A DNA stretch of 4,835 nt, taken from the IMG/VR virus record IMGVR_UViG_2693429508_000011. One strand, written 5' to 3'. This document shows positions 1-4,835 of this stretch, piece after piece. Origin of the DNA: a virus. Lineage: Duplodnaviria; Heunggongvirae; Uroviricota; Caudoviricetes. Numbering within the stretch: the stretch's first letter is position 1; each line of letters starts with the position of its first letter. A program made the position numbers and the translations under genes. The notes under the pieces were generated by a model, which was not told where the DNA came from, searched no databases, and saw nothing but the letters and a program-made list of their open reading frames with translations.

Positions 1-30
1 ACACTAAATCAGTAAGTTGGCAGCATCACC
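1..30 (-). mobile_element. IS1 terminal fragment: left inverted-repeat end of an IS1 copy that extends leftwards out of the window
   Basis: Positions 1-30 (acactaaatcagtaagttggcagcatcacc) are the exact reverse complement of the recalled IS1 left end GGTGATGCTGCCAACTTACTGATTTAGTGT. The element is therefore in minus orientation and its boundary is at position 30. Confidence 0.85.
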
Positions 31-137: not shown

Positions 138-566
138 TTATTTAGACAAACTATCTAATTTTTGCGTCGCTTTTTGTGTTAGGTCGCTGTAACTGATAAA
201 CCCTACGTTAGCACCTACAATTAACACTAAGAACACTAAGCTGCATATGGATAGAGTGGCAGATTTATGCTTATGGAAAACAAAATATGCTACTATTGCA
301 CTTAATATGAAGGAAATGAATAGAAATATAGATGTTGATGTTTTTAGATATTTTTCAGGAAATAATGGGTGAGCAATAATGTATACAAGATTAAGTAGTA
401 TATAAATTGCTACCGGAATGAAAATCATGCTCCAGTGTGTATCTTTTTTGGGAGGGATTGGCTGCAAATAATCAGACACCGTTTTTCCATCAGTTTCAAG
501 AAGAATTACTAGATCTCTTACTTCACCACTGACTTGAGTGCCATCCTTAGTAGTAATGTTAATCAT
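138..566 (-). CDS. Hypothetical small membrane protein, 142 aa: about 45-aa N-terminal soluble domain followed by three predicted transmembrane helices
   Basis: ORF 138..623 trimmed to the internal ATG at 564-566, which is preceded by a strong Shine-Dalgarno GGAGGG with a 5-nt spacer (minus strand reads tttGGAGGGaaaaaATG). Three hydrophobic stretches (IFIPVAIYILLNLVYIIAHPLF, IFLFISFILSAIVAYFVF, LSICSLVFLVLIVGANVGFI). Its ATG overlaps the upstream gene's TGA as ATGA. AT-rich, unlike the neighbouring phage genes. No family recognised. Confidence 0.6.
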   Translation of the reverse strand: MINITTKDGTQVSGEVRDLVILLETDGKTVSDYLQPIPPKKDTHWSMIFIPVAIYILLNLVYIIAHPLFPEKYLKTSTSIFLFISFILSAIVAYFVFHKHKSATLSICSLVFLVLIVGANVGFISYSDLTQKATQKLDSLSK

Positions 567-940
567 TTTTTCCCTCCAAATACGATGCCCTCTACGTCTT
601 TGGAAGCTTTTTGTGATGACCACTCCTCTGAATCAGGTGATTTAATTAAAAATATTGTATCTCCATCAAAAATCGTATTTGTTCCGTAAAAATTCACATT
701 TGATAGATCACCACCAAAAACCCTCTGCCCACTCGAGGTAATTGCCTCACCTAATTTAGTAAAATTACCAGCAATAGATGATTTTCTTTTTCCACTTCTA
801 TTCAAAGTGGCTTTAATTACACCACCACCATCCTTAGAGTTAAATAATTGAATGTCCACTCCAGCAGTTGGTTGTATATATTTTGAAAGCTCTTTCTTGA
901 ACTTGTTAATATATTTATCTTTGTTTTCTTTGTTGGTCAT
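563..940 (-). CDS. Hypothetical soluble protein, 125 aa, Gly/Ser/Lys-rich; first gene of a two-gene operon
   Basis: Uninterrupted 125-codon ORF in AT-rich DNA with a single Met start at 940. Its stop (TGA, 563-565) overlaps the start of the downstream membrane-protein gene. Upstream Shine-Dalgarno is weak (GGAT). No recognisable family from sequence alone. Confidence 0.5.
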   Translation of the reverse strand: MTNKENKDKYINKFKKELSKYIQPTAGVDIQLFNSKDGGGVIKATLNRSGKRKSSIAGNFTKLGEAITSSGQRVFGGDLSNVNFYGTNTIFDGDTIFLIKSPDSEEWSSQKASKDVEGIVFGGKK

Positions 941-2694: not shown

Positions 2695-3078
2695 ATGCGT
2701 GATATTCAGATGGTTCTTGAGCGTTGGGGAGCGTGGGCGGCTAATAATCATGAAGATGTGACCTGGTCGTCCATTGCCGCCGGTTTTAAGGGATTAATTA
2801 CTTCAAAAGTAAAATCTCGCCCGCAATGTTGTGACGATGACGCGATGATTATTTGCGGGTGCATGGCCCGTCTGAAAAAGAACAACAGCGATTTGCACGA
2901 TTTATTAGTAGATTATTATGTAGTCGGTATGACATTCATGTCACTGGCAGGTAAGCATTGCTGCTCTGATGGTTATATCGGGAAAAGGTTACAGAAGGCT
3001 GAGGGCATAATTGAAGGGATGTTAATGGCATTAGATATCCGGTTAGAGATGGATATCGTTGTTAATAACTCTAATTAA
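2695..3078 (+). CDS. quuD: Phage late-gene antiterminator Q (phage 82 / DLP12 QuuD type), 127 aa
   Basis: ORF 2680..3078 trimmed to the ATG at 2695, preceded by GGAG (2684-2687) with a 7-nt spacer. The Cys-rich 127-aa product ([24 protein letters not shown]...) and its position after rusA-ylcG match the phage-82-type Q of DLP12. Confidence 0.8.
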
Positions 3079-3102
3079 TATGCCAATTGTTTACTAAAAA
3101 TT

Positions 3103-3128
3103 ATTAAAAATGGGGCGTTGCAACGCCC
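3103..3128 (-). terminator. Candidate rho-independent terminator for the minus-strand porin transcript
   Basis: Perfect 18-bp palindrome GGGGCGTTGCAACGCCCC (3111-3128), followed on the minus strand by a T-rich tract (ATTTTTAATAATTTTTAG), about 140 bp downstream of the porin stop. Confidence 0.4.
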
Positions 3129-3216
3129 CCAAAAATAAAGGGTAATATATAACAGAAGGTTTATATAGTTAGAAGCAAGGTTGTGCTCCTAAAGGAAGTG
3201 GCTTGAGGGAGCCACT

Positions 3217-3257
3217 TATATGTTGGGGAGGCAAAGCCTCCCGCAACATATCTTTTA
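3217..3257 (+). terminator. Candidate tR'-like intrinsic terminator downstream of Q
   Basis: Long imperfect hairpin (atatgttggggaggc / aaa / gcctcccgcaacatat, one bulged G) followed by CTTTTAG on the plus strand. Position is analogous to lambda tR' after the late promoter. A second 8-bp hairpin lies just upstream (3195-3216). Confidence 0.35.
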
Positions 3258-3266
3258 GTAATCAAA

Positions 3267-4349
3267 TTAGAACTGGTAAACCATACCTACAGCAACGATA
3301 TCATCGGTAGCAACGCCAGATGCTTTCGTGAAATCGCTCTTATCAATCAGGTTGATTTTGTAATCAACAAAAGTGGACATATTTTTGTTGAAGTAATAGG
3401 TTGCACCTACATCAATATATTCAACCAGGTCCTGATCACCCCACGCACCCAAGTCTTTTCCTTTAGATTGCAGGTAAGCAACGGACGGACGCAGACCGAA
3501 GTCGAACTGATATTGTGCAACTACTTCGAAGTTTTGTGCTTTGTTGGCAATATGGTTATTACCAAAAACAGTCATGTTCTGGGTTTCAGAATAGGTGGTA
3601 GCCAGATAGATGTTGTTCGCATCATATTTCAGACCAGCTGCCCATACTTCAGCATTTTGACCAGATGCATTCAGGCTGTTGTTACCGTAGATAACCTGAT
3701 TATTAGTGCGGTCAGATTTAGCATAGGTTGCACCTACACCGAATCCTTCATACTCATAAGTAGTGGAGAAACCGAAACCATCACCATTAGCTTCAGTTAC
3801 GTCAGTGCGGTCATTTTTACCCTGATACTGAGCAGCAAAGTTCAGACCATCAACCAGACCAAAGAAGTCGTTGTTACGATAAGTTGCAACACCAGTGGTG
3901 CGACCAGTCATGAACACATCTGTTTGAGTCCAAGTGTCACCACCGAATTCTGGCAGGACGTCAGTCCACGCACCGATGTCGTATGCTACACCGTAGTTAC
4001 GGCCGTAATCGATGGAGCCGTAGTCACCGAATTTCAGGCCAGCGAAGGCAAGACGGGTTTTATCTTTGGAGGAACCTTGAGATTCAGCGCGGTTGCCTTT
4101 GAATTCATATTCCCACTGACCGAAACCAGTCAGTTGATCGTTGATTTGGGTTTCACCTTTGAAGCCAAGACGGGCATAAGTAGTATCACCATCATCTGCA
4201 TCATTAGAGGAGAAGTAGTGCTTAGCATTAACTTTCCCGTACAGATCCAGCTTGTTACTGTCTTTATTATAAATTTCAGCTGCCTGAGCAGACATCGCCA
4301 TCAGTACTGATGCAGCTACAGCAGAAATTGCCACTGTTAATTTTTTCAT
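3267..4349 (-). CDS. nmpC: Outer-membrane general porin, OmpC/OmpF/PhoE family (prophage converting porin, NmpC/Lc-like), 360-aa precursor
   Basis: ORF 3267..4409 trimmed to the ATG at 4347-4349 ([23 protein letters not shown] signal peptide, AAGGG Shine-Dalgarno upstream). Mature N-terminus [17 protein letters not shown]...LGFKGETQ...[12 protein letters not shown] closely resembles OmpC. C-terminus ...VGMVYQF ends in the Phe typical of beta-barrel porins. Location after Q on the opposite strand matches DLP12 nmpC. Confidence 0.9.
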
Positions 4350-4456: not shown

Positions 4457-4782
4457 NNNNNNNNNNNNNNNNNNNNNNNNNNNNNNNNNNNNNNNNNNNN
4501 NNNNNNNNNNNNNNNNNNNNNNNNNNNNNNNNNNNNNNNNNNNNNNNNNNNNNNNNNNNNNNNNNNNNNNNNNNNNNNNNNNNNNNNNNNNNNNNNNNNN
4601 NNNNNNNNNNNNNNNNNNNNNNNNNNNNNNNNNNNNNNNNNNNNNNNNNNNNNNNNNNNNNNNNNNNNNNNNNNNNNNNNNNNNNNNNNNNNNNNNNNNN
4701 NNNNNNNNNNNNNNNNNNNNNNNNNNNNNNNNNNNNNNNNNNNNNNNNNNNNNNNNNNNNNNNNNNNNNNNNNNNNNNNNNN
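4457..4782. other. Run of 326 N (assembly gap or masked sequence); content unknown
   Basis: Continuous n characters. The two ORFs in the track spanning it (4419..4796 and 4423..4818) are artefacts of translating N. Confidence 0.95.
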
Positions 4783-4804
4783 GTTTACGTACGTAAAAAA
4801 TTGG

Positions 4805-4835
4805 GGTAATGACTCCAACTTATTGATAGTGTTTT
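4805..4835 (-). mobile_element. IS1 terminal fragment: right inverted-repeat end of an IS1 copy that extends rightwards out of the window
   Basis: Positions 4805-4835 (ggtaatgactccaacttattgatagtgtttt) are the exact reverse complement of the recalled IS1 right end AAAACACTATCAATAAGTTGGAGTCATTACC. Same minus orientation as the IS1 end at 1-30. Confidence 0.85.

Follow-up and report, generated by a model that had tools for sequence, protein, structure and literature searches.

The interval between quuD and a convergent porin gene in DLP12/PA-2-type prophages as a probable junction of transcript ends, with the conserved late promoter cassette located beyond the porin gene

The textbook layout of a lambdoid late promoter region is that of phage lambda, PR'-qut-6S RNA-tR', and this layout lay behind an earlier note in which the DNA directly following an antiterminator Q gene was read as such a region. 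Lambdoid phages may also carry morons, extra genes that have a promoter and a terminator of their own and are inserted among the conserved phage genes, such as lc of PA-2, nmpC of DLP12, and bor and lom of lambda. A further arrangement of relevance is that of convergent genes of Escherichia coli, between which Ju et al. reportedly described, in 2019, overlapping bidirectional terminators.

The Q proteins of these phages are not all of one kind. According to a preprint from the Ebright laboratory, Q21 and Q933W belong to one family, and Q-lambda and Q82 to two others (10.1101/651190). Late promoter regions of the first family are known from 933W and phage 21. In the Stx phage 933W the PR' start was placed, by dRNA-seq and Term-seq, 258 nt before the 3' end of tR' (PMC7547250). 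In phage 21 (Yin et al. 2019; OL657228) the record shows, in the first 90 nt downstream of Q, the -35 hexamer, a two-part Q-binding element, the -10 hexamer, the start, a pause element and a terminator.

The DNA analysed in this study (4,835 nt, referred to as the window) contains part of a lambdoid prophage, with the following genes and boundaries:

Plus strand: a NinB-like gene (ybcN in K-12), ninE, ybcO, rusA, ylcG and the antiterminator Q gene
2695..3078, plus strand: the antiterminator Q gene (QuuD type, 127 aa; TAA stop codon at 3076-3078; PF06530, E 3.5e-53)
3267..4349, minus strand: an outer-membrane porin gene (NmpC/Lc/OmpD type), convergent to Q (PF00267, E 3e-153)
4805..4835, minus strand: an IS1 end, GGTAATGACTCCAAC..., assigned from matches to thousands of places annotated as IS1-like transposase; a second IS1 end is at 1-30

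The orientation of the two IS1 ends follows from the IS1 sequence. The prophage homology begins at position 30, and positions 4457-4782 are masked (N). The interval of interest, 3079-3266, begins 1 nt past the Q stop codon and comprises the 188 nt between the two convergent genes. DNA of this type is widespread: of 5426 complete E. coli genomes, 3665 have matches to the sequence, and in 2388 of these at least 80% of the query was covered. Identical or nearly identical DNA is also present in prophage DLP12 of K-12, in phage PA-2 (where the porin gene is lc) and in some 35 temperate phages of known sequence, e.g. mEp332. RefSeq labels the Q gene on identical DNA quuD, and the porin gene is labelled porin, ompC, OmpD, nmpC or lc in phage and RefSeq records. 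The latter gene has its own promoter, as its start site has been mapped in K-12 (PMC11677980), and CRP sites are annotated for it in the PA-2 record. A search of the whole window against Rfam, at a permissive threshold, matched no family.

The Q protein of the window is, like Q21, a PF06530 protein; it is 78% identical to the Q of 933W and 29% identical to Q21. This placement makes 933W and, more distantly, phage 21 the proper comparators. Phage 82 was considered for this purpose and rejected, since the Q of the window goes with Q21 and Q933W, and Q82 is in a separate family (10.1101/651190).

The DNA following the Q stop codon was read in 64 loci with relatives of this Q (40-100% identical, one genome per species). 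In about 40 of the 64, one and the same cassette begins between -12 and +47 nt from the Q stop codon; these loci represent the genera Escherichia, Shigella, Citrobacter, Trabulsiella, Pantoea, Erwinia, Proteus, Providencia, Xenorhabdus, Photorhabdus and Yersinia. The cassette starts with an A-rich run, which is followed by the palindrome TTTACG(TA/AT)CGTAAAA and a -10 hexamer (TATTGT, TATCAT or TATGCT), and then by G(A/T)TAAGAGTG, a small inverted repeat and AGCTTA; the next element is a GC hairpin that has a T-run. Put briefly, it consists of the palindrome, the -10 hexamer, GATAAGAGTG, the small inverted repeat and the terminator. Alignment of 34 distinct cassettes revealed 22 invariant columns, those of TTTACG..CGTAAAA included. 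We showed by this comparison that the predicted late promoter, a probable Q-binding palindrome, the transcribed leader and the terminator are joined in a single conserved cassette, in which the palindrome TTTACGTACGTAAA is the probable Q-binding element of the Q933W/QuuD family. In 933W the cassette coincides exactly with the annotated pR' (AF125520, 20666-20693), and by our own mapping the published start would be located 7 nt past the cassette -10 hexamer.

Some members of the family carry insertions between Q and the cassette (at +140, +819, +855 and +1413 nt). In the ev087-type phages a strong plus-strand terminator directly follows Q, a convergent Blc lipocalin gene comes after Q, and a variant of the cassette is found approximately 1.9 kb downstream. 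The junction between Q and its promoter therefore repeatedly takes up extra genes, and the porin gene is one such insert.

The earlier note had placed the late promoter, the Q-utilisation site and tR' within 3079-3266. The cassette is not there: an nhmmer profile built from 33 Q-adjacent cassettes gave zero matches in this interval even at E<=10, and the palindrome pattern TTTACGWWCGTAAA is absent from it at up to 3 mismatches. In the QuuD-porin phages the cassette lies beyond the porin gene, where the same profile matches with E ~1e-16 (mEp332, L002:5053-5114; PA-2, L003:1694-1755; 4C10, L005:4157-4219). Of the IMG/VR loci that have an identical Q and extend far enough downstream (75 loci), 74 have the cassette +1638 to +1658 nt after the Q stop codon, and in DLP12 of K-12 it is likewise located beyond the porin gene. 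In mEp332 and K-12 it reads GGTTTACGTACGTAAAAAATTGGTTATGCTGTTAAGAGTGGTTACTTCGTCACACAGCTTAAACCCGCCGTCGAGCGGGTTTTT, and the holin gene (S/essD) follows some 190 bp downstream. This position beside the holin gene agrees with those passages of PMC7918800 (citing Rueggeberg 2013, 2015) that concern the DLP12 lysis operon, in which the regulatory region was cloned from upstream of essD and control by the prophage Q is stated. Directly after the interval, the next gene is the convergent porin gene and not a late gene on the same strand. The displaced cassette is annotated in none of the public records inspected, and the carefully annotated lambdoid genome 434B, which has the DLP12 Q-porin-lysis region, has the late promoter marked at neither place.

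In the window, the profile matches at 4782-4804 alone (E 8e-4, profile positions 7-29 only), and the one exact occurrence of the TTTACGWWCGTAAA pattern is at 4784-4797. Both mark a remnant of the cassette:

4783..4804, plus strand: GTTTACGTACGTAAAAAATTGG, i.e. the -35 hexamer, palindrome and spacer of the late promoter cassette, identical to the first 22 nt of the K-12/mEp332/PA-2 cassette

This remnant runs directly into the IS1 end GGTAATGACTCC..., and just 22 nt of the cassette are left because IS1 was inserted between the -35/palindrome part and the -10 hexamer; the -10, the start site, the leader and the terminator were thereby removed from the cassette of the window. The same IS1 junction occurs in another IMG/VR locus, L042; of the 1756 positions that can be compared between this locus and the window, 1 differs. 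Since IS1 splits the late promoter in this genome, Q cannot bring about late gene expression from the prophage remnant.

The interval itself contains the following features, HP1, HP2 and HP3 being its three hairpins:

3089..3102, plus strand: GTTTACTAAAAATT, possible decayed copy of the cassette -35 region (GTTTAC[GTACG]TAAAAAATT), read by eye
3095..3129, minus strand: HP1 and the tail that follows it on this strand, ATTTTTAATAATTTTTA (3111 down to 3095), resembling an intrinsic terminator of the porin transcript, with a 3' end predicted at ~3105-3110
3143..3169, plus strand: AT-rich segment with the -10-like hexamers TAATAT (3143-3148), TATATA (3146-3151) and TATAGT (3164-3169)
3196..3217, assigned to neither strand: HP2, which may stabilise, pause, or form a tandem structure with HP3
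3218..3256, plus strand: HP3 followed by CTTTT, terminator-like for transcription leaving Q, predicted 3' end ~3254-3258

All three hairpins reported in the earlier note are present, each shifted by 1 nt to the right (3112-3129, 3196-3217 and 3218-3251). Their stability was compared with that of dinucleotide shuffles (n=200). HP1 (arms GGGGCGTTG/CAACGCCCC, 3112-3129) is flanked on the plus strand by A-runs at 3096-3100, 3106-3110 and 3131-3135; in the folded RNA a 7-bp stem closes a 4-nt loop (-13.3 kcal/mol), and the z-score in its AT-rich 46-nt context is modest (-1.6 for the plus and -2.1 for the minus strand). HP2 (arms AAGTGGCT/AGCCACTT, 3196-3217) has 8-9 bp and reaches -13.5 kcal/mol on the plus strand, with z-scores of -5.3 (plus) and -6.1 (minus) and 0 of 200 shuffles equally stable. 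The most extensive structure is HP3, ATATGTTGGGGAGGC-AAA-GCCTCCC(G)CAACATAT at 3218-3251, in which 15 bp are interrupted by a single bulged G at 3243 (-22.7 kcal/mol; z -6.5; 0/200 shuffles equally stable). CTTTT follows directly 3' of HP3 (3252-3256) and is extended to CTTTTT in the K-12 and PA-2 alleles.

The 18-nt perfect palindrome with flanking A/T runs, to which the earlier note had drawn attention, indeed exists at 3112-3129 in the allele of the window. Other natural alleles have GGGGCGT-TGAG-ACGCCCC at this place, or a -TGAA- or -GGAA- centre, so that the constant unit is reduced to the 7-bp stem with its 4-nt loop; the perfect palindrome is an accident of the allele of the window. Covariation analysis of the hairpins was dropped, since the 27 distinct alleles are all at least 91% identical to one another and several singletons resemble homopolymer sequencing errors. 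Because the alleles are too alike for covariation, the placement of variable sites was used as the test instead. There were 14 variable columns among 11 recurrent variants, with 0 in the 62 stem nt and 4 in the 12 loop or bulge nt; under uniform placement the chance of seeing zero stem changes would be ~0.006. Both the loop and the bulge of HP3 are variable, and in one allele the bulge is lost. In the more distant 4C10 allele the HP3 bulge is shifted, with the number of pairs kept, and two inner stem positions of HP2 are changed. The placement of the variants and the bulge changes point to the hairpins mattering as structures.

We found that the flanks of the hairpins are asymmetric with respect to strand. 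The A-runs on both sides of HP1 on the plus strand correspond to T-runs on both sides on the minus strand. Past HP1 the minus strand reads ATTTTTAATAATTTTT and the plus strand CAAAAATAAAG; past HP3 the sequence is CTTTTAG on the plus strand (in the alleles of K-12 and PA-2, CTTTTTCG) and AAGTGGC on the minus strand; HP2 has a T-run on neither strand. A hairpin acting in both directions is expected to have an A-tract 5' and a T-tract 3', an arrangement that fits neither HP1 nor HP3. The proposal that single hairpins may act both ways therefore receives no support from the flanks, each T-run being present on one strand only. As regards the features of intrinsic terminators, HP1, HP2 and HP3 are all GC-rich and stable; the U-tract fits in the case of HP1 (minus strand), consists of just C and 4-5 T in HP3 (plus strand), and is lacking in HP2, which is without explanation in a pure intrinsic-terminator model.

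A terminator consensus scan passed a single site in the interval, HP1 on the minus strand, HP3 having been missed because of its bulge. Terminator-like sites are not more numerous in the region than chance would give (2 vs 1.3 expected from shuffles). With our own implementation of scoring of the d'Aubenton-Carafa type, HP1 received -5 on the minus strand vs -49 on the plus strand, HP3 -17 to -15 (plus) vs -50 (minus), and HP2 -42 and -55. Three reference terminators scored in the same way (933W tR', the phage 21 terminator and the ev087 post-Q terminator) reached +19 to +35. Since HP1 (minus strand) and HP3 (plus strand) both score below these references, the efficiency of the two hairpins is uncertain, above all that of HP3 with its 4-5 T after C. 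The predicted strand assignment of the hairpins is thus clear and their predicted strength modest, especially in the case of HP3. The K-12 Term-seq supplements (eLife) contain no mention of quuD, nmpC, essD or ylcG, and the Cappable-seq supplements contain no coordinates falling in the range of the K-12 locus.

Taken together, these data make it probable that the interval 3079-3266 is the 3' junction between the nin-Q operon and an oppositely oriented porin cassette, inserted between Q and the late promoter, with the promoter itself located elsewhere. The view of the interval as a shared termination region holds as far as the convergent genes and the terminator-like hairpins for each direction are concerned, and is not supported as regards the late promoter, Q-utilisation site and tR'. 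The most likely role of the hairpins, as predicted from their flanks, is to form the transcript ends of Q and porin in a crossed, strand-specific arrangement. Transcripts of the porin gene (minus strand) would run past HP3 and HP2, neither of which has a U-tract on that strand, and would stop at HP1 with its downstream AUUUUUAAUAAUUUUU, some 30 nt before antisense entry into Q. Transcripts leaving Q (plus strand) would pass HP1, which has no U-tract on that strand, and would stop, probably inefficiently, at HP3 with CUUUU(U), some 10 nt before the porin stop codon and thus before antisense entry into the porin gene. The Q and porin RNAs would then overlap by a structured 3' UTR of approximately 150 nt. 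In a lysogen such an arrangement would insulate the expressed porin gene from the phage genes, and during lytic growth N-modified polymerase from pR would be expected to read through. It is conceivable, though very unlikely in our opinion, that the shared ~150 nt of complementary 3' UTR couples the two units by antisense pairing, RNase III or collision, or releases a 3'-UTR small RNA; if this were true, the threshold at which phage transcription leaks in the lysogen would depend on porin expression, or the other way round.

One alternative is that put forward in the earlier note, in which the interval holds a Q-dependent late promoter, the Q-utilisation site and tR'. The place directly after Q fits the layouts of lambda, phage 21 and 933W, -10-like hexamers lie ~18 nt apart (TATAGT follows 18 nt after TATATA) with a terminator-like hairpin downstream on the plus strand, and in common alleles the HP1 loop contains TTGAGA or TTGAAA, a 5/6 match to a -35 hexamer. 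The earlier note had found no clean -35/-10 pair, and our sigma-70 consensus scan also finds none in the interval. A relaxed scan gave, as its best pairing, TTGCAA(3118)-19 nt-TAATAT(3143), with 8 of 12 matches, and the 19-nt spacer of this single pairing counts against a promoter; the relaxed scan was, however, rejected as a discriminator, because the genuine cassette also reaches 8/12 and so scores no better than the look-alikes. A weak consensus match leaves a promoter possible in the interval, and a weak Q-independent one is possible on consensus grounds, so that the case against the late promoter rests on homology and position. The cassette with which this Q family is associated in different genera has no similar sequence in the interval, a complete conserved cassette adjoins the lysis genes downstream in the functional phages, and what follows the interval is a convergent gene rather than late genes. 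The segment 3143-3169 is the sole place in the interval where a late promoter look-alike can be drawn, and its interpretation as pR' is not supported by these comparisons. We therefore regard a Q-dependent late promoter within the interval as highly improbable. The same very low probability applies to the details (a start near 3155, TATAGT at 3164-3169 as a sigma-dependent pause, HP3 as tR' and a leader of ~100 nt), and we hardly expect Q-modified polymerase to cross the porin gene in the antisense direction and so reach the lysis genes, as this model would require. Two other observations concern the same DNA. The sequence ATATAACAG is common to the interval and the post-Q region of the ev087-type phages, and GTTTACTAAAAATT (3089-3102) gave no match to TTTACGWWCGTAAA at up to 3 mismatches; that 3089-3102 and TAATAT represent an old promoter split by the insertion of HP1 is speculation.

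The main alternative for the mechanism of termination is of the collision type, which has been described between convergent E. coli genes (10.1101/2022.10.23.513370). The interval would then be an overlapping bidirectional termination zone, in which hairpins lacking canonical U-tracts pause the polymerases coming from either side and head-on and trailing collisions release them, HP2 and HP3 acting on porin transcripts too, and HP1 on Q transcripts. Three stable hairpins between convergent genes 188 nt apart are consistent with such a zone, as are the weak U-tracts and HP2, which has no T-run on either strand, and collisions would account for the sub-threshold terminator scores. Against this, the T-runs of HP1 and HP3 are confined to one strand each, as in strand-specific intrinsic terminators, and the two units would have to be active together, although transcription of the Q operon is repressed in a lysogen. 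Termination by collision is therefore judged unlikely. The hairpins might also serve mainly as 3'-end stabilisers or processing sites of the porin 3' UTR, possibly as a source of an sRNA, with release effected by Rho or elsewhere. The minus-strand RNA 3270-3130 is predicted to fold at -47.1 kcal/mol (z -7.9), its stems are conserved, and stable short RNAs beside phage Q genes are documented, e.g. StxS (PMC7547250). We consider such a role distinctly unlikely, given that no Rfam family was matched and that HP1 with its U-tract would suffice as a conventional end. The reading of the interval as a 3' junction with strand-specific transcript ends is thus preferred.

On this reading the hairpins would be ordinary transcript ends in a very well known type of prophage, and the main value of the analysis lies in annotation. 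Prophages of the DLP12/PA-2 type, in which quuD is followed by a porin gene, are very common, and in them the textbook rule of a late promoter directly after Q fails; their Q-responsive cassette should be sought past the porin gene, beside the lysis genes. A useful by-product is the definition of the Q933W/QuuD cassette and the recognition of its displacement in the porin-carrying phages. The family-wide definition can be used for locating the late promoters of Q933W/QuuD phages, including those driving the Shiga toxin genes.

Among the known systems with which the locus was compared is the pR'-StxS-tR' region of 933W/Sp5 (Q933W), with which it shares the Q family (78% identity). The cassette of 933W, TTTACG(AT/TA)CGTAAAA followed by the -10 hexamer and GATAAGAGTGG, is that of the QuuD phages, a truncated copy being present in the window at 4783-4804, and has nothing in common with the interval 3079-3266. 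In 933W it overlaps the 3' end of Q, whereas here a 1.7-kb porin insert lies between the two and the cassette is cut by IS1. The region of phage 21 is similar in having a PF06530 Q and, after Q, a promoter with a Q-binding element by the -35 hexamer, a pause element and a terminator. It differs in that Q21 is just 29% identical; the Q-binding element, ATTGAGCA AATGAGCA, was tried as a comparator and rejected, as no similarity was found, and the phage 21 unit is absent from 3079-3266. The lambda PR' unit differs in the family of its Q (PF03589; 10.1101/651190) and has no sequence relation to the window; judging from where the cassettes lie, the rule that places the late promoter immediately after Q fails in the QuuD-porin phage group. 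As in the bidirectional terminators of E. coli, there is a convergent pair of genes with hairpins in a short intergenic overlap and predicted overlapping 3' ends; the difference is that here two hairpins have conventional one-sided T-runs and the collision mechanism is not needed. Finally, the porin gene resembles a moron in having a mapped promoter, CRP sites and a terminator-like hairpin, and in separating two elements that lie side by side in relatives: Q and the cassette are neighbours in the ~40 loci mentioned above, whereas here the porin gene comes between them. It differs from the moron pattern in being inserted antiparallel to the surrounding operon, and it is this orientation that creates the need for a terminator for each direction at the junction.

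At the right end of the window (4783-4835), an IS1 end adjoins GTTTACGTACGTAAAAAATTGG, the first 22 nt of the late-promoter cassette of the Q933W/QuuD family, and an IMG/VR locus near-identical to the window (L042) has an identical cassette/IS1 junction. The IS1 insertion point is located between the -35/palindrome and the -10 of the cassette, and the late promoter of the prophage is therefore split.

The palindrome TTTACG(TA/AT)CGTAAA, which overlaps the -35 (window 4784-4797; columns 9-23 of the cassette alignment), showed no variation across genera. Such invariance goes well beyond the needs of a -35 hexamer, and we regard the palindrome as a candidate Q-binding element of the Q933W/QuuD family, for which, as far as we could find, there is no earlier definition. 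A 5-bp inverted repeat is also kept in the initially transcribed region of the cassette (alignment columns 44-48 / 55-59), in the forms GTGGT..GCCAC, GTGAT..GTCAC or TGAC..GTCA.

L152:4731-4746, leader inverted repeat in an example locus; absent from the window

This repeat was 92% paired in the alignment, compared with 14-66% when the partner was slid, and an A-U to G-C switch was observed at one position (n=5 sequences). It could form a nascent-RNA hairpin or be part of the Q-loading site.

In phage Lambda_ev087 (L004), whose Q protein is 85% identical to that of the window over the aligned length, Q is followed by a tR'-like hairpin, a convergent Blc lipocalin gene and a variant of the cassette. 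The hairpin, GCCAGCCTCCCC..GGCTGG plus T8, is homologous to tR' of 933W, and the post-Q stretch of this phage (L004:2893-3050) has ATATAACAG in common with window 3147-3155.

L004:4771-4800, variant cassette GTTTACAATCGTAAAAAC..TATGAT of Lambda_ev087, approximately 1.9 kb downstream
L007:1227-1249, strong terminator-like hairpin CCCGCCGATGCGCGGG plus T7 of 933W

The 933W hairpin is placed only about 27-49 nt past the PR' start, yet the 3' end of the full-length StxS RNA lies 258 nt downstream of that start (PMC7547250). In the leaders of K-12 and mEp332, the counterpart of this hairpin is the sole terminator.

Shortly after the Q stop codon, window 3089-3102 (GTTTACTAAAAATT) resembles the cassette sequence GTTTAC[GTACG]TAAAAAATT minus its central 5 nt, and may be a relic of an ancestral Q-to-promoter junction. 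Q genes of the ev087 type, and several on chromosomes, are 84-88% identical to the Q gene of the window at the DNA level, but this homology ends about 25 nt before the stop (window ~3054), which places a recombination breakpoint within the C-terminal Q codons, not 3' of the gene.

Two further regions of the window were distinguished. One is located between the replication and nin regions.

Window 138-940, minus strand (opposite to the phage genes), two overlapping AT-rich ORFs of 125 and 161 aa

These ORFs match phrog_18061 and phrog_16940, both of unknown function, and membrane segments are predicted in the 161-aa product. PADLOC returned no match for either ORF, and Pfam none for the 125-aa ORF and a single sub-threshold match for the 161-aa ORF. 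The pair looks like another inserted gene cassette. The other region, within the upstream regulatory region of the porin gene, is a run of 326 N (window 4457-4782), the equivalent of which is 262 nt in L042 and mEp332 and 261 nt in K-12; either the mask is not of matching length, or the genome of the window contains about 64 extra nt.

IS1 ends are present at both termini of the window (1-30 and 4805-4835). On the left side, homology to intact prophages begins at position 30, and in relatives a replication-protein-P gene adjoins the matching point. We take the two ends to be in the same orientation; the 4.8-kb prophage fragment would therefore be flanked by two direct copies of IS1, an arrangement that resembles a composite transposon.
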